Positions 1,832-64,000 of a stretch of DNA of 64,000 nucleotides are shown piece by piece. Each line of letters opens with the position of its first letter. The stretch's first letter is position 1. The stretch is from Alphaproteobacteria bacterium. Its GTDB lineage: Bacteria > Pseudomonadota > Alphaproteobacteria > MPNO01 > UBA830. The DNA lies in NCBI GenBank assembly GCA_964291215.2, contig OZ219791.1:1088001-1152000 (forward strand). The letters run 5' to 3'. Made by a program: the position numbers and the translations under genes. Below the pieces are notes generated by a model. The model searched no databases, was not told where the DNA came from, and saw only the letters and a list, made by a program, of their open reading frames with translations.

Positions 1832-2002
1832 CTTATATGACTAGGTTTTGTCCCCGTGATGATGCAATCATCCACAGCGGTTGGGGGCGGGAAAATGTGG
1901 ACAACCTCGACTGTGGGGGAGCGCCCGGTCCATGGTTGCAGAGAGATTCCGCTCCCCTGTGCGAGCACGCACAGGGGAGCGGGGTGCGGGGATCAAACGA
2001 TG

Positions 2003-4574
2003 CCCTTGACCATCAGTCCGCGCGACGGGTCTCGACGATCAGCCTCGCGGGTGGTGTGGAGCGCGTCGAGGGTGAGCAGACGGCCGGCGCCGTCGCGGCG
2101 TGGACGGCAGCGGTCTCCCCGTCGTGACAGTTGAGGATCGAATACCGGCCAGCGAGACCGTCTCGTAATGATCCTCGCCGGTGCGGCCGCGCTTGCCGTC
2201 GTTGCCGACCTGCGGCTGCGCGCCGCATCCTCGATCCATCCCGGGTCGGTGTTCTGCAGCACCCGGTGCACGGTGGAGACCGGCTTGTTCCTGTTCTTCC
2301 ACGCTGCTCCAGCTCCTTCTGCGTCGTAGTGCGCCACCGCGCCGGTTCGCAAGCCGCGCCATCACGCACAGCACCGAACCGATGCGGTGCCCCGCGCCGG
2401 AAAGCGCCGTTGATAAATCGAGCGCAACTCCTGCGCCGACCAGCGGCGCCCGCAACTCCCACGACGCAGGAAGCGGCGAACGATCCCGCGTCACGACGCA
2501 GCGGAAACACGTAAAGATCCTTCGCCTCCCCGGTCGGCGCCCGCTGGCGCGCGCATGGCTCCTGCCAACGCACTCCCGGTTCGCCGCCTTGTACATGGTG
2601 CCGCTGAACTTCGTCGGCGAGACAAACTTCTCCGCAACGTAACTGCTCACCCCCTGGTTCCGGCTTGATGTCGGGGTAGAGTAACGAACGGGTTTTCGTG
2701 GAGATTTGACACTGCAGGCCGATTCGTTTAGTGGTGGTAATCGAGAACGACGGGGACCGCCAGTGGGCTACTTTGGATCGAAGGCGACGAGCGGGCTGTG
2801 CCAGCTGCTTCCGGGGCTCCGCATGATCTGTATGTGGAAACGCATCTCGGAAGCGGCGCGCTAATGAAGCGCAAGGCCGGGTGATGGCGACGGGCGGCGC
2901 GCGAGGAGTTCGAAGCGGCCAAGACCGCGGCGCTGCCGGCAAGGTGGCGGAAGAGGCCGTCATCCGCGTCCTCGTCATCCTGCTCGACATCCTCATCGTC
3001 GTCCTTCTGGAGAAGACCACGCACGAGCCGGAACTCCGGTCTGCCGCCGTCACAGACGGACAAGAGCGTGCCGGAAGCAAGGGCCCGAAGCCGAACCGGC
3101 AGATGGGCGACAACCTGCGCAAGATCATCGTCGAGGAGACGGTCGCGGCCTGCGACGCCTGCGGCGCTGACGGCGTCGTCGATCGGGAGCGCCGCACGAC
3201 ATCGTGTTCGAGGTCGTCGAGCGCCGCGCCGAGATCAAGGAATGCCCGAAGTGCAAGGCCCGGTTCCCCGACAACATCCCGTGCAGTACGGCATCGGCAT
3301 CCAGGCCCTCGTCATCAACCTGCTGGTCGCCCAGATGCTGTCCCTGCGCCGTGCCGTCGCGCTCGTGCAGGCGATCTCCGGCATCAAGCTCTTCGAGGCC
3401 TCGGCTATGCTTTCACGATGCGTCATGGGAGGAGGCCGCCGTGGCGCACCTCCTGCAACGCCCGATGTCGACGATTTCGGATCAACGGCAAGTGGCTTCA
3501 TGTCGTGGGACCCTGACGTGCAAGTTCCCGCACCGCAAGCGCGGGCAAGAGATCGGCCCGTGCTACAAGGGCGTCCTGGGCCTCGTACATGGGCCAGTGT
3601 AGCCACCAGCTGTGCGGCAGCCACCTGCTGCGCGAACTGACCTTTGTCGTCGAGGCTACCGCGCGACTGATGAAGAGCCTGCTCCGCGAGGTCTGCCACA
3701 AGGTCAACAAGAGCGCATCCAAGACCCTGAACGACGCCGGGCGCAAGCGCTACCGCACCATCAGGGCGCCAGGGAACTGCCCGATATCCCGCCGAAAGGA
3801 AAACGTGGACGCAAGTCCGACGCGCACAACCTGCACGAACGTCTCGTGAAACACGAAAACCTGCGCTTCACAGACGACCCCGACGTCAGCTTCACCAACA
3901 ATGCCGGAGAACAGAAGATCAGGATGGCAAAGGTCAAGGTGTCCGGATGCTTCCGCTCCACGCAAAAGCATGGTGCCGGGGCTCAAGCTACCTCACCTCC
4001 ATGGCCGCACTCGGCTACAATCATCACGTCGCAACCCAGATCGCCCTCGACGGAAAAGCCGCAGACATCATCAACGAGCACTACGACCAATCAGAACCCA
4101 ACTAGGGGTGAGTAGATACTCCGCAACAAGCAACGGCAGCCTCCCGGTCGCCGCCGCACCATCCGCGACAACGCAAACGAGGCCCGGAAACACCCGGCGA
4201 CCACCAGGAACAACAAACCTCGTGTTGTTCCCGGCAACCGCCTGAACTGTTCCTCGCGGCGCCAGCCAATCCAACGGTCCCGCGGCCGAGGGCGCCCGTC
4301 TGCCAGCCCGCAGCGCCAATCCACCGCCCGCGCCAGGTGAACACGCAGACCTCGACCGGCAAACTGCTTGAAACCAAGATACCGTCAACGACACGATTCC
4401 AGCGACATCAGGCCGCGCAAGGCGCACAACCACATCCCGGAGCGCAAAACCCTCCGGAGTCGTCTCAAAAAAATCCGCTGCCCCCACGACAACGGATACT
4501 ACGCCGCTTCACAAAAAGCCGGCGAAAATGCGAATCATCCTGAGCAAGCCAAACCGACCCTTTCAACAAATCTG
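2003..4574 (-). mobile_element. Degraded DUF4338-ISAs1-type element (5' part), split by IS66 copy 1
   Basis: Near-identical to uninterrupted paralog 53770-54870; motifs 'RDRWIGW', 'NNTRF', 'STVHRVLQNTDP', 'TLDALHT'. Confidence 0.7.
2639..4119 (+). mobile_element. IS66-family non-autonomous element copy 1
   Basis: Terminal IRs GTAACTGCTCACCCC / GGGGTGAGTAGATAC; 8-bp TSD TCCGCAAC (2631-2638, 4120-4127); empty site seen at 54410-54417; 'HQLCGSHLLREL', 'FTNNAGEQKIRMAKV' remnants. Confidence 0.9.
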
Positions 4575-5061
4575 GCGTGAGATCACCGTGGGACATTCGT
4601 GCGGCGGCGCGTCGTTTTGCGAACGACGCCACGAGCTGGCGGGCACGTGGCTTCGCAGCCTCGAGGTGACCCGTGTGGTGATGGAGGCGACAGGCCGCTA
4701 TCACCGCCAGTATCTTCATGACCGGGGCTTCGAGGTTGTTCTGCCCGCTGCGGGCCCGGCGTTTCGCCGAAGCGTTGGGCCATCTGGCCAACCGCGTCGA
4801 CGCTGGCCAGGATCGGCACGATGGTCGGCGATCTTGATCCTGTAGCTCCTCAGGAAGCCTTCCTCAAGAGCCTGGAGGATCTCCTGGTGCCGCGCTTGTC
4901 GACGCCAGGCAAGTGGCAGATGAGGTGGATGGCGAGAGCGTCACAAGGGCCTCGGCGGCCTATCTCGATGATTGCCAGGCTGGATGCGGCAATCAAAGCG
5001 GTGATCGCCGGTGATCCCGAGCAGAGGTACGGCATCCTGACCTTGATCCCCGGTCCGGTGA

Positions 5062-5349
<288 letters not shown>

Positions 5350-5373
5350 TGAGTGAGCGAAGGAGACCCCCTC

Positions 5374-5630
5374 ATGGCCTCACCTCTGCCGAGAAACAGC
5401 GCCGTTATCGGGAACACCGCAAATCTCTGCCCACGGAAAGCCCCGTCGTTCCCGTGCGCAACGCTGGCGCGATGCGGTGGCTCGGTGCAGTGCAGGAGCA
5501 CTATCGGGACTGTCTCGACAGTCTCCCAGCGCGACACGAATTACGGAGAACGTCTGCAGATCATCGTCGAGGCTGACATCGCGGATCTTGAGGACATCGA
5601 ACCGTCGCGCGGCTACGGACGGGACACCTG
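5374..5630 (+). pseudogene. Small cargo ORF of the IS110 element ('LTSAEKQRRYR...EPSRGYGRD'), frameshifted
   Basis: AGGAG RBS at 5361-5365, ATG 5374; homologous remnants in copies B and C. Confidence 0.55.
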
Positions 5631-5853
5631 GAACCCCATTGATCACGGTAACGTTACCATGCCCGGGGACGCTGGACGGCAAGGTGGCCGCGCTCACGTG
5701 ACCAATGGACGGCAACCCGCCGCCGGGACCACAAGCTGCATGTCGCCTCGCTCGCAGGGCAAGGACAAGGCGGAACCCCGGACCGCCTGTGGACAACCAC
5801 GGAAAACACCACCGCGGACACCCGCAAAAGCCTTGCCAGGAAACATGGATGCT

Positions 5854-6201
5854 CGGGATGCCAGGTCGCCATCATCGCCAGGCGCTTGTCCTCGCCGTCG
5901 CCGACCGGCTCCACGGTGACCTCGCCAAGCTCCTTCGGAGAACCTGCGAGTGGCTTGTCGGGACAGTCCCGCTCAAGGGTGCCGGTGTCGAGGCCTTGGT
6001 GCAGGAAGGACGATGCCGAACGCCGAGGCAAGACCAGGCAGGGCCGCACGCAGCAAGGCACAACTCGCCCTTCGCGTTGCGCCAGTCCTCGCGCTCGCAC
6101 AATCCCTGCGCCAAGGACGAGCGCGTGCTGCTCTCGGCAACCGACGCCGCCTTCAGCCAATCAACCGTCGTCGTGGACAGATGTCGAAAGCCAATTCTCA
6201 T
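5854..6201 (-). pseudogene. N-terminal DUF4338-type domain remnant of a transposase (probably continues into 602-1831)
   Basis: 'MRIGFRHLS...STRSSLAQGLCEREDWRNAKGELCLA'; rejoins in frame with the flank at 1831 when IS110 copy A is removed. Confidence 0.55.
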
Positions 6202-49903: not shown

Positions 49904-51794
49904 GGCGCTACAGGATCCAGAAAGCGCAGCCCTCCTGCCATCGTGGTGAAAGGAGAGACCGGGGCGGTCAGAGCCTTAACCTGTACGGTCACGATGTCCA
50001 GATCGTGGTACTTCTGGTGCAGGCGGAGCGAGACTTCCCGCCTAGCTGCCCGGTCTCGTCGGCCTGCGCGACCACCTCGATTATCTGCTCATTTGCTTCT
50101 GCTACAGCTCCCTTGCCGAGCGAAGGCAGGTCACAGCCACCAACGCCACCGAACGAAAGTTATGGAAGGCTCGAAGACAAACTTGGCCCATGGGCACCTC
50201 CCAGGACAAGGCCTCAACAGACCGCTTTCCCTGCGCGGTCGCCATCTTCGAAGCCAAAGCTTAGGAAAGCATTCCCCCGTCTCCCCGACGCATCAGTCCT
50301 GACGTTCCGACCAAGGTGATCCCATGCTTGTTGATGTGATGTGATCGGAGTCCTGATCGCGGCGCGGGTCGACGCGTTCGAGGCTGCGATTTTGAGATTG
50401 CTGACGCGCTGTTGCGGCGCGGGGCGCGATTGGTCGGCGTATCCGGGGCGAGCAAGAGGCCTTGGTTGCCGGGCTTGAAAGCTTGCGGTTTCTGTCGGGG
50501 AGAGAGGCGCGGTCAGCCTGGTCTTGTGATTGCGTGCAGGACCTGCTTGCGCTTGTCGGCATGGTGGGAAGCTGTTGAAGGGTTTGGGCAGCTTGCGCTT
50601 GTTGTGGATGATGATTGCGAGGGTGATCGCGTTGTTTGCGGGCGCGTTCGGAGCATGGAGTCGTCTTCGCGGAAGGTGGCGTCGCGGACATGATGATGGC
50701 TCTCGACTACCCGGTGTCCACGATTCCATGCGAGCAACTGTTGCGGCGAGGCGCGCTCGACCGAGCATCCATGTTTCTTGGCAAGGTTTTTGCGGGTGTC
50801 TGTGGTGATGTTTTCTGTGGTTGTCCACAAGCGGTGTGGGATTTGCTCTGCGAGCGAGGCGACATGAAGCTTGTGGTCCCGGCGGCGGGTTGCCGTCCAT
50901 TGGTCACGTGAACGCGGCTACCTTGCCGTCCCCGGGCACGTGACCGTCCGGGTTCCAGGTGTCCCAAGGCGGTTCGATCTCCTCGATGTCGACCTCGACG
51001 ATGATCTGCAGACATTCTCCCCAAGTCGTGTCGTAGAGGGAGACTGTCGAGACAGTCCCGATCGCGCTCTCGGCAGGGCCGTGTCTCCTTCGCTCACTCA
51101 CCGGTGCTTCGGTCGACAAGCAACGCTGCTGTCGCAGCAAGGTGTTCGCCAGAGCTTGCGCATCACGGCGACAATCGCGACCTTGCTTGCCGGCGGTCTT
51201 GAGGCGCACCAGGTCCGCGTTGAAGCTTGCGGCCAGGAGATCACGTGGCCTGCCCGCCACGGATGTGCCGAGCACCGTGGTCGTTGGCGCCACCCCGATC
51301 AAGGCTGCCGACGCTGCCGAGTTCGGGCATCCAGCAAAGAAAAGCCGTGGCGGTCACCGGATCGAGGTCAGGATGGCGTAGCTCTGCTCGGGATCACCGG
51401 CGATCACCGCTTTGATCGCCGCGCCGGCGGTCATCGAGATCGGCCGCCGAGGCCCTTGTGACGGTCTCGCCATCCACCTCATCTGCCACGCGTCGACAAG
51501 CGCGGCACCAGGAGATCCTCCAGGCTCTTGAGGAAGGCGGAGCCACAGGCTCACCGTGCCGATCCTGGCGTCGACGCGGTTGGCCCATCGCCTCGGCGAA
51601 GCGCCCGCAACGGGTTGACGAGAATAACCTCGAAGCCCCGGTCATGAAGACACTGGTGAACCTTGCGGTGATAGCGGCCTGTCGCCCACCACCCGGCTCA
51701 CCCCGAGGCCGCGAAGCCACCTGCCCGTGGCGTTGTTCGCAAAACAATGCGCCAGATGTCCAGACTGGCTGACCCCTGCTACTACCTTGACCAT

Positions 51795-52059
51795 CGTCCC
51801 TTGCTCCTCGCCTTACGATGGGTTCAAACCCAGGCGTCCAGCGAGGGACGTCAAGGGAGGTTGCCAAACTCGGTCGCGGCTCTGTCAAGGCCAAGGTCAA
51901 AACGGCAACCTCCGCGGAGATCGTTTGATCCCCGCTCCCCTGTGCATGTTCGCTCAGGGGAGTGGAATCTCTCTGCAACCATAGCTCTCCCACAGATCCA
52001 CATTTTCCCGCCCCCAACTGCTGTGGATGATTTCATCATCAAGGGGACAAAACCTAGTC
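51795..52059 (-). ncRNA. Candidate IS110 bridge RNA (copy B)
   Basis: Stem GGAGGTTGCC/GGCAACCTCC encloses guides TGACCT and CGACCGAG matching this copy's target; donor loop partly degraded. Confidence 0.7.
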
Positions 52060-53583
52060 GTATCTACTCACCCCTTGTTGGGTTCTGATTGGCCATAGTG
52101 CTCGTTGATGATGTCTGCGGCTTTTCCGTCGAGGGCGATCTGGGTGGCGACGAGTGGGTTGTAGCCGAGTGCGGCCATGGAGGTGAGGTAGCTTGAGCCC
52201 CGGCACCATGCTTTCGCGTGGAGCGGAAGCATCCGGACACCTTGAGCTTTGCCATCCTGATCTTCTGTTCTCCGGCATTGTTGGTGAAGCTGATGTCGGG
52301 GTCGTCTGTGAAGCGCAGGTTTTCGTGTTTCACGAGACGTTCGTGCAGGTTGTGCGCGTCGGACTTGCGTCCACGTTTTCCTTTCGGCGGGATGTCGGGC
52401 AGTTCCCTGGCACCCTGATGGTGCGGTAGCGCTTGCGCACGGCCCGGCGTCGTTCAGGGTTCTGGATGCGCTCTTGTTGACCTTGTGGCAGACCTCGCGG
52501 AGCAGGCCCTTCATCAGTCGCGCGGTAGCCTCGACGACAAAGGTCAGTTCGCGCAGCAGGTGGCTGCCGCACAGCTGGTGGCTACACTGGCCCATGTACG
52601 AGGCCCAGGACGCCCTTGTAGCACGGGCCGATCTCTTGCCCGCGCTTGCGGTGCGGGAACTTGCACGTCAGGGTCCCACGACATGGAGCCACTTACTGTT
52701 GATCCGAAATCGTCGACATCGGGCGTTGCAGGAGGTGCGCCACGGCGGCCTCCTCCCATGACGCATCGTGAAAGCATAGCCGAGGCAGGTTGCCTCGGAG
52801 AGCTTGATGCCGGAGATCGCCTGCACGAACGCGACGGTACGGCGCAGGGGCAGCATTTGGGCGACCAGCAGGTTGATGACGAGGACCTGAATGCCGATGC
52901 CGTACTGCACGGGATGTTGTCGGGGAACTGGCCCCGGGCCTTGCACTTCGGGCATTCCTTGATCTCGGCGCGGCGCTCGACGACCTCGAACACGATGTCG
53001 TGCGGCGCTCCCGATCGACGGGGCCGTCGATGTCAGCGCCGCAGGCGTCGCAGGCCGCGACCGTTTCCTCGACGATGGTCTTGCGCAGGTTGTCGCCCAT
53101 CTGCCGGTTCGGCTTCGGGCCCTTGCCGTTGCTTCCGGCACGCTCTCGTCCTTGTCCGTCTGTGACGGCGGCAGACCGGAGTTCCGGCTCGTGCGTAGTC
53201 TTCTCCAGAAGGACGACGATGAGGATGTCGAGCAGGATGACGAAGACGCGGATCACGGCCTCTTCCGCCACCTTGCCGGCAGCGCCGCGATCCTGGCCGC
53301 TTCGAACTCCTCGCGCGCCGCCCGTCGCTATCACCCGGCCTTGCGCTTCATCAGCGCGCCGCCTCCGAGATGCGTTTCCACATACAGATCATGCGGAGGC
53401 TGGAGCCCCGGAAGCAGCTGGCACAGCCCGCTCGTCGCCTTCGATCCAAAGTAGCCCACTGGCGGTCCCCGTCGTTCTCGATGACCACCACTAAGCGAAT
53501 CGGCATGCAGTGTCAAATCTCCACGAAAACCCGTTCGTTGCTCTACCCCGACATCAAGCCGGAACCAGGGGGTGAGCAGTTAC
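52060..53583 (-). mobile_element. IS66-family non-autonomous element copy 5
   Basis: Same TIRs; 8-bp TSD ACCTAGTC (52052-52059, 53584-53591). Confidence 0.9.
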
Positions 53584-54867
53584 ACCTAGTCATATAAGGT
53601 CATGGCGTGTTCGGTTTTCCTGAATTCGACGTGCCGGGTGACGCGGAAGATCTGCTTGACTAGTTGATCATCTTCGCCAGCGGGGTGAAAATGGTGCGCT
53701 GGCGGCCATGCGCGGGCTTTTCGTTGTAGCGCTGGCGGTCTTCCAGTTGATGCTCTCTCGAAGGTGCGTTGCCCTTGACCATCAGTCCGCGCGATGGGTC
53801 TCGATGATCAGCCGCGCGGGTGGTGTGGAGCGCGTCGAGGGTGAGCAGACGGCCGTCGCGGCGTGGACGGCAGCGATCTCCCCGCCGTGACAGTTGAGGA
53901 TCGAATACCGGCCAGCGAGACCGTCTCGTAATGATCCTCGCCGGTGCGCTTGCCGTCGACCGCGTTGCCGACCTGCGGCTGCGCGCCGCGTCCTCAATCC
54001 ATCCCGGGTCGGTGTTCTGCAGCACCCGGTGCACGGTGGAGACCGGCTTGTCCCTGTTCTTCCACGCTGCTCCAGCTCCTTCTGCGTCGTAGTGCGCCGC
54101 CGCAACCGCGCCGGTTCGCAAGCCGCGCCATCACGCACAGTACCGAGGCGATGCCCCTGCGCGCGCCGGAAAGCGCCGCTGATAAATCGAGCGCAACTCC
54201 TGCGCCGACCAGCGGCGCCCGCAACTCCCACGCCACAGGAAGCGGCGAACGATCCCGCGTCACGACGCAGCGGAAACACGTAAAGATCCTTCGCCTTCCC
54301 GTGCCGATCGGTATAGCGCCCGCTGGCGCGCGCATGGCTCCTGCCAACGCACTCCCGGTTCGCCGCCTTGTCCATGGTGCCGCTGAACTTCGTCGGCGAG
54401 ACAAACTTCTCCGCAACAAGCAACGGCAGCCTCCCGGTCGCCGCCGCAACATCCGCGACAACGCAAACGAGGCCCGGAAACACTCGGCGACCACCAGGAA
54501 CAACAAACCTCGTGTTGTTCCCGGCAACCACCTGAACTGTTCCTCGCGGCACCAGCCAATCCAGCGGTCCCGCAGCCGAAGGCGCCCGTCTGCCAGCCCG
54601 CAGCGCCAATCCACCGCCCGCACCAAGTGAACACGTAGCGCAGACTTCGACCGGCAAACTGCTTGAAACCAAGATACGGTCAACGACATGATTCCAGCGA
54701 CATCAGGCCGCGCAAGGCGCACAACCACATCCCGGAGCGCAAAACCCTCCGGAGTCGTTTCAAAAAAATCCGCTGCCTCCACGACAACGGATACTACGCC
54801 GCTTCACAAAAAGCCAGCGAAAATGCGAATCATCCTGAACAAGCGAAACCGACCCTTCCAACAAACC

Positions 54868-56080
54868 TAGTAGTCTGGCATTATTAAATTGATGTATATA
54901 GAGACTTTAGTTTTGTCCGGGCATCCTTCGTCGTGAAACGCCAGTCGACGGTGACATCGGCCGCATTGCGCCGTTCCACCTACGCCGCCGTCTCCCGCCG
55001 CATGGTGTCTCTGTCGGGAATGCGTCGCCGAAGGCATTGCCGCGACAGCGCACCGATCTCGGCCATGTTGAGCCAGCTTCCGTGCTTCGGCGTGTAGCGA
55101 AACTCGAACCGCTTTCGTACCCGCCTCCTCGGGCTCGAAGGCTTCATACAGCGACTGTGCGTGTTCAGATTGTCCAGCACGATCTTCCTGTCGGGGAAAT
55201 GGTCGTCGGCAAGCTCCCGGATGAAGTGCGCCCAGTCCCGCGGCGGTCGGTGACTTTCACCGTGCGCCAGTTCTCGTTGGGCGCAAAGGCCATGAAGAGG
55301 TTGGCCGTGCCGTTGCGCTCATATTCATAGTCGACCACCTTCGGCTGACCGGGGGATGCGGGTTTCCTTCGTCTGCTGCCGGCTGGTCTCGCACACCAGC
55401 ACCTCGCCCCCGACAAAGTCCCGCTGATAAATGTCAAGCACGTCCGCCGCCACGAACTGTGCGCTCCGGTGCGGTGGAATGCACCAGTACTGCTTCAGCC
55501 ACGGCCTGATCTCTTTATTTTGAGCGTCTTCCTGACCGTCTCTTCCGAAATGCGCTCGACGATCTCCACCAGACGGCCGGCGAGCAGCGTCCACAGCCCT
55601 CGGGCGGGGACGAGACCAGCTTCGCCTCCATCGCCCCGTCCAGCCGTTTTGGCCGGCGGTTCACCTGCTCCTTGCGGCTGAGGGCGGCGTCCAGCCCCCG
55701 CAGCGCTTGCGCAAGCGCTCGACCGTCGCCGTGCCGATGCCCAGCGCAATGTCGGCATCGACAAGCGCCCCCTCAGCATCAGGATTTGTGCCCGGCGCCA
55801 GGCAGCCCCGGTGTCGTCGACAATCGCCTTCAGATCCCGGCGCTCCTGCGCCGAAAGGGTCACCCGGTAGAGTTTCCTGCCCTGAGAGTTGGCCATATGC
55901 GCCGCTCCTGTCATTGCCCCGAAGACCTGCGGGCATGCCCGTTGTCCGGACCTGCGCATGGCGCTGCGGCTGCCTGCCTGTTCGGCATCTTGCCCGTATC
56001 GGCACTGTCCGGATTCCAACGAACGCCGACACGAAAATACTACCCACCAAAACCATCAATACAATGCCGGTGTACTACTA
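54868..56080 (-). mobile_element. Degraded IS630-family element
   Basis: 'YRVTLSAQERRDL', 'DYEYERNGTANLFM', 'LDNLNTH', 'YTPKHGSWLNMAEI'; TAGTAGT...GGCATT inverted ends. Confidence 0.85.
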
Positions 56081-57848: not shown

Positions 57849-57912
57849 CTAGACTGTCCGTCCATTCGGGACGGAGACCGGAGTATGAAACGCTACATGG
57901 TAACCTTGGACG
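57849..57912 (+). pseudogene. IS630-like left end and first codons (MKRYMVTLDE), target of IS110 copy C
   Basis: GGAG RBS plus 'MKRYMVTLDE' resembles the IS630 N-terminus 'YxVTLxxxER'. Confidence 0.5.
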
Positions 57913-58097
57913 AGCATCCATGTTTCCAGGCAAGGTTTTTGCGGGTGTCTGCGGTGGTGTTTTCTGTGGTTGTCCACAGGCGGTCTGGGGTACCGCTTCG
58001 CCGATGTCCTCACCCTGCGAGCGAGGCGACATGCAACTTGTAGTCCCGGCGACGGGTTGCCGTCCATTGCTCATGGTAACGTTACCGGTGAGCGTGG

Positions 58098-58938
<841 letters not shown>

Positions 58939-59298
58939 CTAGCGTCGACAAGCGCGACACCAAGAGATCCTCCAGGTTGTTGAGGAAGGCATCCTGAGGA
59001 GCCACAGGCTCAAGATCGCCGACCATCGTGCCGATTCTGGCCAGAGTCGACGTGGTTGGCCCAACGCTTCGGCGAAGCGCCGGGCCCGCCGCCAGCGGGT
59101 TGACCAGGACAACCTCGAAGCCCCGGTCACGAAGACACTGGTAAACCCTGCGATGATAGCGGCCTGTCGCCTCCATCACCACACGGGTCACCTCGAGGCT
59201 GCGAAGCCACGTGCCCGCCAGCTCGTGGCGTCGTTCGCTAAACGACGCGCCAGATGTCCAGACTGGCCTTGCTGACATCAAGCTACTACCTTGACCAT

Positions 59299-59461
59299 CG
59301 TCCCTTGCTCCTCGCCTTATGATGATACGGTTTAAACCCAAGCATCCATTCAAGACGCAAGGGACGCCAAGGGAGGTTGGCCGACCAAGCTCGTCCGCGG
59401 CTCTGTAAGGCGGAAACGGCAACCTCCGCGGGGATCGTTTGATCCCCGCACCCCGCTCCCC
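59299..59461 (-). ncRNA. Candidate IS110 bridge RNA (copy C)
   Basis: Target loop (CCGCCT, GGACGAG) and donor loop (ATGGATGCTT, hairpin GGTTTAAACC, ATAAG), each closed by a stem. Confidence 0.75.
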
Positions 59462-59670: not shown

Positions 59671-59706
59671 GCGTTTCACCGGGGGGCTAGCCCCCCGGTG
59701 AAACGC
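59671..59706. repeat. Perfect 36-bp palindrome centred on CTAG
   Basis: GCGTTTCACCGGGGGG-CTAG-CCCCCCGGTGAAACGC. Confidence 0.9.
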
Positions 59707-59891
59707 GGCGCCATCGTGCCATCCCATGGAGCTGTAAAAATTCATGGAGGAAGCGAATGGACCTGCGACACACTACGGCGATTGCAAACCTGACAGTGCT
59801 CGGAGTAGGATCTTGCGATGTTGAGTGCCCTTCCTCTTCCGACCCCCGTTGTTCGTCGAGAATCTCCGAGAAACGCCGGAGAACCTGCCCG

Positions 59892-60902
59892 ATGAGCTTT
59901 CCGGCGATGCCGCACGATGCGCTGTTCCGGGCGCTGGTCTCCAAACCTGCCCGCGCTGCCGCGCTGCTCACAGAATACCTGCCGCAAGAAGTGGCCGCCC
60001 TCCTCGACCTCAAGGCCCTGCCTGAGGCAGTCGAAGGCAGCTTCATCGACGAGGACGCCACGCGAACCCAGTGTGATGCGCTGTTCCGGGTCAAGCTGAA
60101 GAGCGGGCACGAGGCGCGCCTCTATGTGCTGCTCGAACATAAGAGCCGGGTCGATGCCGACACACCGTTACAACTCCTGAAATACATGGTCAACATCTGG
60201 CGCCAAGAGATCGAGAATGGCGCTGCCGGGGACAGGTTGCCGACGATCATTCCGCTGGTCTTCTACCACGGCCAGGGTCGCTGGACGGCGGCGCGCTCGG
60301 TGCCGGAGATGATCGACGCGCCTGAGGCGCTGGCACCTTTCGTCAGGGAGTTTGCCTATGTGGTGCACGACCTTGGGGAGATCGCACCACGCCGGCTGTC
60401 GATCTCGCCCGAGGTGCGGGCCGGGCTTCTGGCGCTCAGGGTCGTTCATGCCGAGGAGATACCGCCCGATCTTCTGGACGAGATGACGGGCGGGCCGGTT
60501 GCGGGAAGCGCGTTCGAGCGTCATATTGTGCGTTACATTGCCGAGTGCATGAACCTGACGCCGCCTTTGCTGGAGGCGTCGCTGCGCCGGACGAAACCGG
60601 ATCGCTGGGAGGCACTGATGGGAACGGTCGCGCAAGCCTGGATCGAACAGGGAATCGAACGGGGAATCGAACAGGGGATTGAACGAGGCCGGAGCGAGGG
60701 CCGGGAGGAGGGCCGAGAGGAGGGCCGGCAGACCTTGACGGAACTTCTTCTTCGTCAACTGGCGTTGCGCTTCGGTGATGTGCCGGATACGGTTCGCGAG
60801 CAGGTCCGTGGTGCGTCGGCGGCGGAACTGGAGGTCTGGGCGGAGGCGGTGTTGGTGGCAACCAGCCTTGATGAAGTGCTGGCTGTCAGGCCCGGGCGCT
60901 GA
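59892..60902 (+). CDS. Rpn family (YhgA-like) PD-(D/E)XK nuclease with DUF4351-like C-terminus, copy 1 (336 aa)
   Basis: 'HDALFR', 'SFID', 'DALF', 'YVLLEHKS', 'QLLKYM', 'IPLVFYHG', EQG/EEG repeats, 'RQLALRFG'. Confidence 0.9.
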   Translation: MSFPAMPHDALFRALVSKPARAAALLTEYLPQEVAALLDLKALPEAVEGSFIDEDATRTQCDALFRVKLKSGHEARLYVLLEHKSRVDADTPLQLLKYMVNIWRQEIENGAAGDRLPTIIPLVFYHGQGRWTAARSVPEMIDAPEALAPFVREFAYVVHDLGEIAPRRLSISPEVRAGLLALRVVHAEEIPPDLLDEMTGGPVAGSAFERHIVRYIAECMNLTPPLLEASLRRTKPDRWEALMGTVAQAWIEQGIERGIEQGIERGRSEGREEGREEGRQTLTELLLRQLALRFGDVPDTVREQVRGASAAELEVWAEAVLVATSLDEVLAVRPGR

Positions 60903-61166
60903 ATCGGCGCCGTGTACTTGTGTGACACGCGCGACATGACCATTGACTTTGGCGTCCTGAAGAACGCGGACACCGCAGGCTCCGATCTTGAGGCATGTTG
61001 CTCCGGTTGCGGATCGGCTTCGAATATCGGCCTCGAGTCCCTGACATATGTCATGAATCAGGCGCATTTTACATGGGTGCAATATGAAGCTAGAGAAATC
61101 ATATAAACAAGCTATATCAGTGGATTAACGTGTATATCAGCTCGAATTTTTTGGAACTAAGGATTG

Positions 61167-61256
61167 AGCGAATCGGTCTGTAGTGTCAAGTCTCCACGAA
61201 AACCCGTTCGCTGCTCTGCCCCGACATCAAGCGGGAATCAGGGGGTGAGCAGTTAC
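61167..61256 (-). mobile_element. Solo IS66 left end in the Rpn spacer (repeated at 62724-62813)
   Basis: About 90 bp matching the left terminus of IS66 copies 1-5, ending GGGGTGAGCAGTTAC. Confidence 0.85.
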
Positions 61257-61436
61257 CCCGAACGCTTACTCAGAACTACCGCCCGTCATGACGATTCCGG
61301 CCTGTCCCCGCGACAGGCGTCGGCGATTGCAAACCTGACAGTGCTCGGAGTAGGATCTTGCGATGTTGAGTGCCCTTCCTCTTCCGACCCCCGTTGTTCG
61401 TCGAGAATCTCCGAGAAACGCCGGAGAACCTGCCCG

Positions 61437-62459
61437 ATGAGCTTTCCGGCGATGCCGCACGATGCGCTGTTCCGGGCGCTGGTCTCCAAACCTGCCCGCG
61501 CTGCCGCGCTGCTCACAGAATACCTGCCGCAAGAAGTAGCCGCCCTCCTCGACCTCAAGGCCCTGCCTGAGGCAGTCGAGGGCAGCTTCATCGACGAGGA
61601 CGCCACGCGAACCCAGTGCGATGCGCTGTTCCGGGTCAAGCTGAAGAGCGGGCACGAGGCGCGCCTCTATGTGCTGCTCGAACATAAGAGCCGGGTCGAT
61701 GCCGACACACCGTTACAACTCCTGAAATACATGGTCAACATCTGGCGCCAAGAGATCGAGAATGGCGCTGCCGGGGACAGGTTGCCGACGATCATTCCGC
61801 TGGTCTTCTACCACGGCCAGGGGCGCTGGACGGCGGCGCGCTCGGTGCCGGAGATGATCGACGCGCCTGAGGCGCTGGCACCTTTCGTCAGGGAGTTTGC
61901 CTATGTGGTGCACGACCTTGGGGAGATCGCACCACGCCGGCTGTCGATCTCGCCCGAGGTGCGGGCCGGGCTTCTGGCGCTCAGGGCTGTTCATGCCGAG
62001 GAGATACCGCCCGATCTTCTGGACGAGATGACGGGCGGGCCGGTTGCGGGGAGCGCGTTCGAGCGTCATATTGTGCGTTACATTGCCGAGTGCATGAACC
62101 TGACGCCGCCTTTGCTGGAGGCGTCGCTGCGCCGGACGAAACCGGATCGCTGGGAGGCATTGATGGGAACGGTCGCGCAAGCCTGGATCGAACAGGGAAT
62201 CGAACGGGGAATCGAACAGGGGATTGAACGAGGCCGGAGCGAGGGCCGGGAGGAGGGCCGGGAGGAGGGCCGAGAGGAGGGCCGGCGGACCTTGACGGAA
62301 CTTCTTCTTCGTCAACTGGCGTTGCGCTTCGGTGATGTGCCGGATGCGGTTCGCGAGCAGGTCCGTGGTGCGTCGGCGGCGGAACTGGAGGTCTGGGTGG
62401 AGGCGGTGTTGGTGGCGGCCAGCCTTGATGAAGTGCTGGCTGTCAGGCCCGGACGCTGA
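61437..62459 (+). CDS. Rpn family nuclease, copy 2 (340 aa)
   Basis: As copy 1, with one extra REEG repeat. Confidence 0.9.
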   Translation: MSFPAMPHDALFRALVSKPARAAALLTEYLPQEVAALLDLKALPEAVEGSFIDEDATRTQCDALFRVKLKSGHEARLYVLLEHKSRVDADTPLQLLKYMVNIWRQEIENGAAGDRLPTIIPLVFYHGQGRWTAARSVPEMIDAPEALAPFVREFAYVVHDLGEIAPRRLSISPEVRAGLLALRAVHAEEIPPDLLDEMTGGPVAGSAFERHIVRYIAECMNLTPPLLEASLRRTKPDRWEALMGTVAQAWIEQGIERGIEQGIERGRSEGREEGREEGREEGRRTLTELLLRQLALRFGDVPDAVREQVRGASAAELEVWVEAVLVAASLDEVLAVRPGR

Positions 62460-62993
62460 ATCGGCGCCATGTACTTGTGTGACACGCACGACATGACCAT
62501 TGACTTTGGCGTCCTGAAGAACGCGGACACCGCAGGCTCCGATCTTGAGGCATGTTGCTCCGGTTGCGGGTCGGCTTCGAATATCGGCCTCGAGTCCCTG
62601 ACATATGCCATGAATCAGGCGCATTTTACATGGGTGCAATATGAATCTAGAGAAATCATATAAACAAGCTATATCAGTGGATTAACGTGTATATCAGCTC
62701 GAATTTTTTGGAACTAAGGATTGAGCGAATCGGTCTGTAGTGTCAAGTCTCCACGAAAACCCGTTCGCTGCTCTGCCCCGACATCAAGCGGGAATCAGGG
62801 GGTGAGCAGTTACCCCGAACGCTTACTCAGAACTACCGCCCGTCATGACGATTCCGGCCCGTCCCCGCGACAGGCGTCGGCGATTGCAAACCTGACAGTG
62901 CTCGGAGTAGGATCTTGCGATGTTGAGTGCCCTTCCTCTTCCGATCCCTGCTGTTCGTCGAGAATCTCCGAGAAACGCCGGAGAACCTGCCCG

Positions 62994-63968
62994 ATGAGCT
63001 TTCCGGCGATGCCGCACGATGCGCTGTTCCGGGCGCTGGTCTCCAAACCTGCCCGCGCTGCCGCGCTGCTCACAGAATACCTGCCGCAAGAAGTGGCCGC
63101 CCTCCTCGACCTCAAGGCCCTGCCTGAGGCAGTCGAAGGCAGCTTCATCGACGAGGACGCCACGCGAACCCAGTGTGATGCGCTGTTCCGGGTCAAGCTG
63201 AAGAGCGGGCACGAGGCGCGCCTCTATGTGCTGCTCGAACATAAGAGCCGGGTCGATGCCGACACACCGTTACAACTCCTGAAATACATGGTCAACATCT
63301 GGCGCCAAGAGATCGAGAATGGCGCTGCCGGGGACAGGTTGCCGACGATCATTCCGCTGGTCTTCTACCACGGCCAGGGTCGCTGGACGGCGGCGCGCTC
63401 GGTGCCGGAGATGATCGACGCGCCCGAGGCGCTGGCACCTTTCGTCAGGGAGTTTGCCTATGTGGTGCACGACCTTGGGGAGATCGCACCACGCCGGCTG
63501 TCGGTCTCGCCCGAGGTGCGGGCCGGGCTTCTGGCGCTCAGGGCTGTTTATGCCGAGGAGATACCGCCCGATCTTCTGGACGAGATGACGGGCGGGCCGG
63601 TTGCGGGAAGCGCGTTCGAGCGTCATATTGTGCGTTACATTGCCGAGTGCATGAACCTGACGCCGCCTTTGCTGGAGGCGTCGCTGCGCCGGACGAAACC
63701 GGATTGCTGGGAGGCACTGATGGGAACGGTCGCGCAAGCCTGGATCGAACAGGGAATCGAACGGGGCCGGAGCGAGGGCCGGGAGGAGGGCCGGCGGACC
63801 TTGACGGAACTTCTTCTTCGTCAACTGGCGTTGCGCTTCGGTGATGTGCCGGATGCGGTTCGCGAGCAGGTCCGTGGCGCGTCGGCGGCGGAACTGGAGG
63901 TCTGGGCGGAGGCGGTGCTGATGGCAACCAGCCTTGATGAAGTGCTGGCTGTCAGGCCCGGGCGCTGA
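62994..63968 (+). CDS. Rpn family nuclease, copy 3 (324 aa)
   Basis: As copy 1, with three fewer 4-aa repeats. Confidence 0.9.
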   Translation: MSFPAMPHDALFRALVSKPARAAALLTEYLPQEVAALLDLKALPEAVEGSFIDEDATRTQCDALFRVKLKSGHEARLYVLLEHKSRVDADTPLQLLKYMVNIWRQEIENGAAGDRLPTIIPLVFYHGQGRWTAARSVPEMIDAPEALAPFVREFAYVVHDLGEIAPRRLSVSPEVRAGLLALRAVYAEEIPPDLLDEMTGGPVAGSAFERHIVRYIAECMNLTPPLLEASLRRTKPDCWEALMGTVAQAWIEQGIERGRSEGREEGRRTLTELLLRQLALRFGDVPDAVREQVRGASAAELEVWAEAVLMATSLDEVLAVRPGR

Positions 63969-64000
63969 ATCGGCGCCATGTACTTGCGTGACACGCGCGA

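Follow-up and report, generated by a model that had tools for sequence, protein, structure and literature searches.

The closest described systems are IS621 and ISCro4 (Durrant 2024, PMC11208160; Hiraizumi 2026, PMC13626964; PDB 8WT6-9, 9T56). As set out in the parts of these publications consulted, they have a long left end in which a target-binding loop precedes a donor-binding loop, a CT core in all four guides, left guides of 9 nt, a sigma70-like promoter split across the two ends, a 315-aa recombinase with DEDD and serine domains, handshake positions that fit pairing after strand exchange, and targets that often lie in repeats. All of these features are shared with the elements described here (the 315-aa recombinase with their relatives). 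Different here are the donor and target words, a right target guide that is naturally 7 nt long (as reported for some orthologues), two hairpins in a left end of ~320 nt, a passenger gene of 96 aa, a longer 3' non-coding part, the breakage of each scored copy, and the coexistence of many target guides in one genome. Under the IS621 model (PMC11208160, PMC13626964, as far as consulted), excision or copy-out would join the element ends at the CT, and the joined ends would form a promoter from -35 and -10 halves that would drive the bridge RNA. The donor loop would pair with the joined ends and the target loop with the insertion site, with exchange at the CT. Whether IS110 elements exit by cut-out or copy-out is disputed in the portions consulted of two preprints (10.64898/2026.08.31.748434; 10.1101/2025.10.25.684509).

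Two further comparisons are relevant, again to the extent that the sources were available. ISEc11 and ISXne4 (seekRNA; Siddiquee 2024, PMC11187229), members of the IS1111 group with 72% identical proteins, have replaced guide regions in a conserved RNA stem, with the target changed accordingly. The guide changes reported here resemble this, but the elements concerned have 90-99% DNA identity and are found within single genomes, where single-step intermediates also occur. IS110 elements that carry cargo, and half-match insertion (10.64898/2026.08.14.744561; 10.64898/2026.08.31.748434), resemble the present case in having extra genes inside the ends and partial-guide insertions. In the present elements the cargo is a single small gene without a name, and the first of these reports filtered elements with a broken recombinase from its lineage analysis.

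The window (the whole stretch of DNA that was analysed, 64 kb) contains one IS110 family as three pieces, A, B and C (Table 1). The genome comprises 6.15 Mb in two contigs, with 64% G+C and a tmRNA in two pieces, which like the named relatives indicates Alphaproteobacteria; repeats make up 35% of it, and those with at least 20 other copies 19%. We conclude, with a probability of roughly 0.87, that the stretch under study is the donor-binding loop of a bridge-RNA gene in an IS621-type IS110 element, and that the ancestral circle junction would likely unite a -35 and a -10 hexamer. The donor loop and the junction promoter motif had been correctly read in the initial annotation and are real in the sequence; the target-binding loop is the part that it missed. 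The bridge-RNA architecture itself is already published for IS621, so this is one more alphaproteobacterial member, and the guide and target tables of PMC11208160 could already include this subfamily. The two-loop layout, four guides, CT-only duplication, conservation and compensation in relatives, guide-flank matching and decay were all found in the family. We infer the circle, the promoter activity, the RNA and its pairing by analogy with IS621. The complete architecture holds for the family and for no single copy in the window, because copy C is without its own left end and copy A is without the RNA region.

Table 1. Coordinates of the IS110-family pieces and their parts in the window.
Feature	Position	Strand	Remarks
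Copy A, two pieces	1832-2001, 4606-5853	+	same IS110 family
Left end of truncated copy	1832-1841	+	CT core 1832-1833, right donor, -10-like hexamer 1836-1841
15-bp hairpin	1949-1982	+	4-nt loop
Copy A body and right end	4606-5853	+	-35 hexamer 5833-5838, CT core 5852-5853; bridge-RNA region missing; insertion distinct from the left end at 1832
Passenger-gene remnant	5376-5625	+	
Copy B	50764-53598	-	IS110-family piece
Copy B body	50764-52063	-	right CT core 50764-50765
Copy B damaged donor loop	51833-51841	-	in copy B body
Copy B target guides	51894-51902, 51869-51875	-	agree with own flanks at core-proximal positions
Copy B outer left end	53584-53598	-	CT 53597-53598; separated from body by another multicopy element (52060-53583)
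Copy C	57913-59461	-	IS110-family piece
Copy C right end	57913-57933	-	-35 hexamer 57928-57933, left donor, CT core 57913-57914
Copy C passenger-gene remnant	58354-58599	-	96-aa gene, 3' of recombinase in intact close relatives
Copy C recombinase pseudogene	58579-59298	-	PF01548 and PF02371 remnants; start codon 59296-59298
Copy C donor-binding loop	59300-59365	-	closing stem, left donor guide, central hairpin, right donor guide, handshake dinucleotide; helix covaries in relatives
Donor-loop closing stem arms	59302-59308, 59357-59363	-	checked letter by letter
Likely donor-loop handshake dinucleotide	59314-59315	-	first base would pair with target position 7; position by analogy with PMC13626964 (consulted in part)
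Right donor guide	59316-59320	-	complementary to CT and first 3 nt of left end
Palindrome (central hairpin) of donor loop	59329-59338	-	checked letter by letter
Left donor guide	59341-59349	-	equals last 7 nt of right end plus CT core
Copy C target-binding loop	59372-59427	-	absent from the initial annotation
Copy C right target guide	59390-59396	-	7/7 complement of own right junction 57908-57914
Copy C left target guide	59408-59416	-	own left flank lost, so no flank to compare
9-bp hairpin adjoining target loop on its 5' side	59428-59449	-	copy C

Membership in IS110 was judged by a recombinase of 300-460 aa with PF01548 (DEDD) and PF02371 (serine), and remnants of both domains are present in copy C. 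An assignment to the IS1111 group, for which the criteria are a long non-coding region with RNA downstream of the gene and subterminal inverted repeats of 7-17 bp, was rejected: the guides lie upstream of the gene, and only a 3-nt inverted match, judged by eye, flanks the donor. Rfam gave no match at E values up to 1 for the four loci searched.

In copy C, the second stem and the donor-junction match, hairpin and right guide that it encloses are all at, or within a few bases of, the places where the initial annotation had put them. The left guide is identical to the donor junction, as claimed, but over 9 nt; intact relatives have C where the donor would match a tenth base, so that the further T is probably a coincidence. 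The exact pattern of left guide followed by right guide occurs 19 times genome-wide, and 19/19 occurrences are inside the stem of this IS110 family. Folding of the RNA, suggested earlier as a check, gave a two-loop structure (z = -3.0) in the left end, which precedes the recombinase, with helices that covary in 19 sequences. Four helices drawn by hand in these have 92.6% of cells paired and eight pairs with a two-sided change; shuffled helices scored as high in 0-1 of 500 cases on four of five measures and in 88 of 500 on the fifth, kinship not being removed. Beyond ~59461, the left end of copy C is replaced by other sequence. The hairpin proposed as the 5' accessory hairpin does have a perfect 15-bp stem and also occurs, with paired changes, in the intact relatives L103 and L104. 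The 9-bp hairpin of copy C, which directly abuts the target loop, is the closer positional match to a 5' stem-loop, and either hairpin may begin the mature RNA.

Copy B illustrates the mode of insertion. Its host is an ISAs1-like transposase remnant, and excision between its outer CT cores restores the in-frame ISAs1 peptide that had been quoted, with duplication of CT only. The restored peptide aligns with a Pfam DDE_Tnp_1 transposase of another genome (E 4e-22), and the empty site is present in 21 copies in the genome. The left donor guide of copy B, described as having two mismatches, is indeed damaged, and an 8-nt deletion has also removed its first base and part of the stem, but 42 of 60 parsed relative guides likewise have C at position 9, so that one of the two mismatches is in fact the usual state. 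The multicopy element that separates the two parts of copy B may be IS66-like, judging from its ends.

A metagenome search identified an intact close relative, L103, that is ~87% identical in DNA (1841 bp) and encodes an intact 315-aa recombinase; its best PDB matches are IS621 (E 5e-29) and ISCro4, and its acidic residues and serine line up with theirs. L104 is alike (1.84 kb, 315-aa recombinase), and both have the same ends and loops. L104 (527-2367) lies inside another transposase gene, and 250 bp downstream this gene also contains the left end of a second insertion (2615-2739), in the site occupied in L103. Scanning genomes with the intact G001 protein gave 79 loci (L022-L100), from the best 80 of 98; the target loop was parsed in 62 of these and both ends in 48.

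The IS621-type element is dead in this genome: the recombinase is broken in each scored copy. The RNA region is retained in 64 copies genome-wide. Relative to L103, the 58 scored copies (right end present, less than 1.8 kb) have 26-56 deletions each, including at least eight frameshifting ones in the recombinase. Whole-genome searches identified no intact recombinase of this subfamily, and the idea of an autonomous active bridge element in this genome was rejected on the same grounds. Two intact IS110 recombinases of another subfamily (~425-430 aa; L001 and L002, at C1:479356-482793 and C1:882803-886240) are nearly without such deletions and are probably recent arrivals; the one of the two that was compared is 25% identical.

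Guide variants, mostly one or two changes apart, would have taken the element to at least 16 different sites, and most sites are inside other multicopy repeats, which would have multiplied the copies further; deletions of 5-7 nt and short-patch gene conversion would then have eroded and shuffled them. We lean towards the view that breakage of its recombinase did not stop the youngest lineage from moving, with its own RNA and with a helper recombinase missing from the assembly. Movement in trans is favoured because near-identical broken copies are found at matched sites, because one site is empty at strain level, and because deletions in a stem offset each other. Copies of one lineage are 99.6-99.7% identical over four unrelated guide-matched sites, one of them single-copy; copies at unrelated sites differ by 4-6 substitutions per 1.4 kb and have 8-12 frameshifts in common. 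At the single-copy site (C1:1167694-1169093), a contig of run X3 skips exactly the element and run X2 is filled; the flanks of the X3 empty allele differ by only ~1%, and another empty allele was seen in contigs of other runs. One arm of the target stem has lost 6 nt in 58/58 copies, and in 30 of the 58 this is offset by loss of 5 nt from the other arm, leaving a 10-bp stem. Deletions inside guides occur in 0-4 of 58 copies, against many coding deletions that reach 40-56.

There is nonetheless a substantial chance, if somewhat short of even, that nothing moved after breakage: intact elements may have inserted, multiplied as passengers of host repeats, and been kept alike by gene conversion that spread deletions among them. 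Gene conversion would also fit the near-identical broken copies at guide-matched sites. Mosaicism is strong, with 545 of 1830 deletion pairs incompatible with a single tree and SNPs shuffled over ~10 nt among copies, and because of this the copy history is not cleanly readable. Of the 37 copies with both junctions, 29 have a counterpart elsewhere in the genome in the form of an empty site with a single CT, and these copies sit in repeated hosts. The helper recombinase was not found in the genome searches. The suggestion that the RNA loops were spared was not borne out at the level of events: per kb, deletion events are at least as frequent in the loops as in the recombinase gene. A cell-free assay, one that does not cover help in trans, found no activity for elements whose recombinase was truncated (10.64898/2026.08.14.744561, consulted in part). 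The identity of one lineage at four unrelated guide-matched sites, one of them empty in another sample, the low number of copies with deletions in guides, and the offset stem losses speak for movement after breakage. In the literature on non-autonomous elements, we found no answer on IS110 derivatives of this kind.

For the copies at C2:2864309, 3387052, 1487155 and 847495, and for the pair 1832/5853 in the window, the left and right flanks are never joined anywhere, which suggests rearrangements by recombination between copies.

The size of the deletions is itself distinctive. Among clean gaps between repeat copies, 752 of 1164 are 5-7 nt long (65%, mode 6; 171 of 266 in a smaller set), and these are enriched for microhomology of at least 2 nt (339 of 752, with 145 expected). 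On one strand, among 413, starts at GTC (66 versus 24) and ATC (43 versus 16) are also enriched. Such deletions are dense in all repeat families sampled, including those at 2638-4119, 52060-53583 and 53590-54870 of the window. Repeats of the congener G002 show 26 of 32 gaps of 5-6 nt; elsewhere the short-gap pattern accounts for 2 of 58 gaps in six related-element sets of other genomes and 5 of 29 in G334. A comparison with G002 (87 alignments of selected genes, median identity 72%) showed no excess of 5-7 nt, and one 7-nt indel was identified in a single-copy flank. An assembly artefact was rejected, as the same indel sizes are present in contigs of other runs. NucS, Ku and Piwi were not found in the genome; the MutS frame is intact. 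Deletions in bacterial pseudogenes follow power-law sizes with an excess of 3n (Danneels 2018, PMC6054270, in the parts consulted). Deletion-biased decay, partly at microhomologies and without Ku, is common to those pseudogenes and to these repeats, but the dominance of 5-7 nt sets the latter apart. We found no paper on this deletion pattern.

In the window, TTGCCA is followed by 13 nt and the CT core at one end, and at the other the CT is followed by 2 nt and TATGAC, giving a 17-nt spacer across a junction. Both hexamers and the spacing are as the initial annotation described, but the two ends that it joined come from different insertions, because their flanks pair with different partners in empty sites. 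No empty site in the genome unites the flank at 1817-1831 with the flank at 5854-5868, and each has another partner elsewhere. The claim that the promoter halves meet only across joined ends does hold, as integrated flanks supply at most 4/6 positions for the -35 (in one case) and at most 3/6 for the -10.

A census of the motifs gave 69 right ends, 68 of them followed by CT, and 63 left-end bodies, of which 42 keep the CT and the donor word and the rest are truncated. TTG--- occupies the -35 position in 69/69 right ends of this genome. Among the 48 relative loci with both ends, the unconstrained hexamer at that position is TTGA-- in all 48, with a spacing of 17, and the -10 position reads TATG-T in 28, TATGTC in 8 and CATGTT in 12, although the left-end pattern used on relatives partly required the -10, so that these -10 counts are partly built in. 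The -10 of this genome lacks the final T that is present in 40 of the 48.

It is improbable, in our judgement, that the loops are real and the junction hexamers do not act as a promoter here, the RNA arising instead by read-through or from an internal promoter. The hexamers match the consensus at only 5/6 and 4/6 positions. Because 122 genome sites score as well as the joined promoter, the promoter alone is weak evidence, and it is its conservation that counts. The junction lies ~300 nt from the start codon, a distance longer than the 177-nt IS621 RNA, and read-through RNA supports IS621 excision (PMC13626964, in the parts consulted). The constancy of the -35 in both sets, each with 17-nt spacing, and the failure of integrated flanks to supply the missing half argue for the junction promoter. 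A circle junction was identified neither in the assembly nor among the matches listed in contigs of four and three runs, which are uninformative for rare circles and cannot show absence.

The target loop carries the variation. The 64 copies have 11 left and 10 right target guide variants, and the right variant of copy C is private to it (0 others among the 64). Right guides match their own flank at all five variable positions in 38 of 59 copies, at four in 16 and at three or fewer in 5. The right flank is thus not perfectly matched in 21 of 59, and the mismatched guide outnumbers the matching one (9 versus 8) at the largest site. For 19 distinct guide/flank pairs, right guides match at 75 of 95 positions, compared with 56.3 +/- 3.9 when permuted; left guides match at 64 of 85 positions over 17 sites, compared with 45.9 +/- 3.4 (positions 3-7, positions 1-2 having been left out for this genome after they were seen to be invariant). 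Two ties in the per-site test went to the matching guide. The corresponding values in relatives are 94 of 120 over 24 pairs against 47.1 +/- 5.5 for the right guide and 127 of 224 against 78.8 for the left, and the match in relatives is still significant when the worst flank per guide is used. Permutation p values are ~1e-5 for both guides, here and in relatives, by permutations that ignore relatedness. This covariation confirms membership and adds no mechanism, because such covariation across orthologues underlies the work of Durrant 2024 (PMC11208160, as far as consulted).

Guides also change rapidly, a tempo that published work covers less well. In this genome, five guide combinations that are 1-4 changes apart each fit one of five sites at nine core-proximal variable positions. 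In 17 close pairs, hand-picked mostly for differing guides, as many as 10 of 12 guide positions differ, against 8% of four-fold sites (L025/L027, 10/12 versus 14/178; L069/L100, 9/12 versus 12/132). L032 and L066, from one relative genome, are 99% identical and have the same target sequence, but their right guides differ at three of five positions; one of these guides fits the flank, and the other is the guide of another lineage. Three siblings in the present genome (C2:261248-262720, 1045622-1047013 and 3343628-3344977) have a private SNP in common, 8 nt from a variable guide base, and show 0, 1 and 2 guide changes towards the flank.

Guides may have been rewritten after insertion to match the flank of the resident copy, by templated copying or by selection on resident copies, rather than having changed first, but we regard this as unlikely. 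The rapid divergence of guides relative to four-fold sites and the siblings at one site that differ only towards the flank speak for rewriting, as do the 5-76 perfect empty 11-mers that remain for each guide tested: because these remain, present-day target exhaustion does not force guide change. The non-matching sibling, though, always has an allele of another lineage in the same genome, which short gene conversion explains, and lineages within one genome exchange left and right guides as separate modules. The fast-guide pairs were hand-picked, and four close pairs have identical guides. The direction of guide change is not fixable, given the SNP shuffling and the incompatible deletion pairs. 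No templating chemistry is known from the parts of the literature consulted, and we found no answer there to how IS110 elements acquire new target guides.

Conservation of the donor match in homologous elements, on which the initial annotation had staked its reading, was found. The right donor guide pairs 5/5 with its own left end in 34/34 parsed relative loci, which span three donor words, and in 36 of 40 copies of this genome (wobble allowed in both counts); copies with the left end CTTGT have the matching guide variant in 4/4 cases. Donor guides are nearly invariant (0.07 and 0.25 bits per column), and target guides are near random (1.45 and 1.67). In IS621, handshake pairing is favoured after strand exchange (PMC13626964, consulted in part), and the handshake positions here appear to fit that pairing. 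The first base of the target-loop handshake is C in 60/60 relatives, complementary to donor position 7; the donor-loop base is G in 38 of 39 cases with C at target position 7 in this genome, and A in 5/5 parsed cases in which that position is T, with A also facing C in five cases. A reading of the guide matches as coincidence, or as leftovers of a local duplication of an element end, could cite the shortness of the matching words (9 and 5 nt), but it is already largely refuted and almost certainly wrong: one match is sense and the other antisense, both guides vary in step with the donor across genomes, the target loop tracks the flanks, and the layout is the published one.

The 96-aa gene is found 3' of the recombinase in the intact close relatives L101-L105 and is itself intact at L103:2532-2822. 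It has 847 homologues, none with a Pfam domain among 120 matches listed; a helical model (pLDDT 84) gave no PDB fold match. No Pfam family and no plasmid match were identified, and the Atlas contained unnamed clusters only. In G334, a PF02371 hit of a different IS110 subfamily precedes 12 of 16 matches by a few hundred bases, and in G057 the gene comes after an IstB-like ATPase gene (labelled by eye). A role as IS110-specific cofactor was rejected on the basis of this position and of the lack of a tblastn match in the 79 loci L022-L100. We conclude that the gene is a passenger of several elements, outside the bridge mechanism.

Elsewhere in the window, Pfam gave nothing in six broken frames of neighbouring elements. 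Three tandem YhgA-like genes (PF04754 and DUF4351, first copy scanned) that are ~95% identical are present at 59757-64000; their long open frames are unbroken although repeated. A perfect palindrome of 36 nt is located upstream of a YhgA-like gene (59671-59706).

The interest of the family lies in the diversity of guides among close copies and in a possible non-autonomous spread, both unproven as mechanisms. It is conceivable, though doubtful as a whole, that the genome is a stepwise record of retargeting, in which guides outpaced silent sites, matched their own flanks (possibly through rewriting after insertion), and allowed recombinase-dead copies to move on their own RNA. The intact relatives (L103, L104 and L022-L100) could be tested as tools with a different donor word. 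Of greater use is the set of tens of close copies whose flanks are known and whose target guides differ, which makes it testable whether new target guides are acquired by point changes, by swapping of left and right guides between copies, or by rewriting from the flank. If the broken copies did move in trans, bridge systems would have guide-carrying non-autonomous derivatives.
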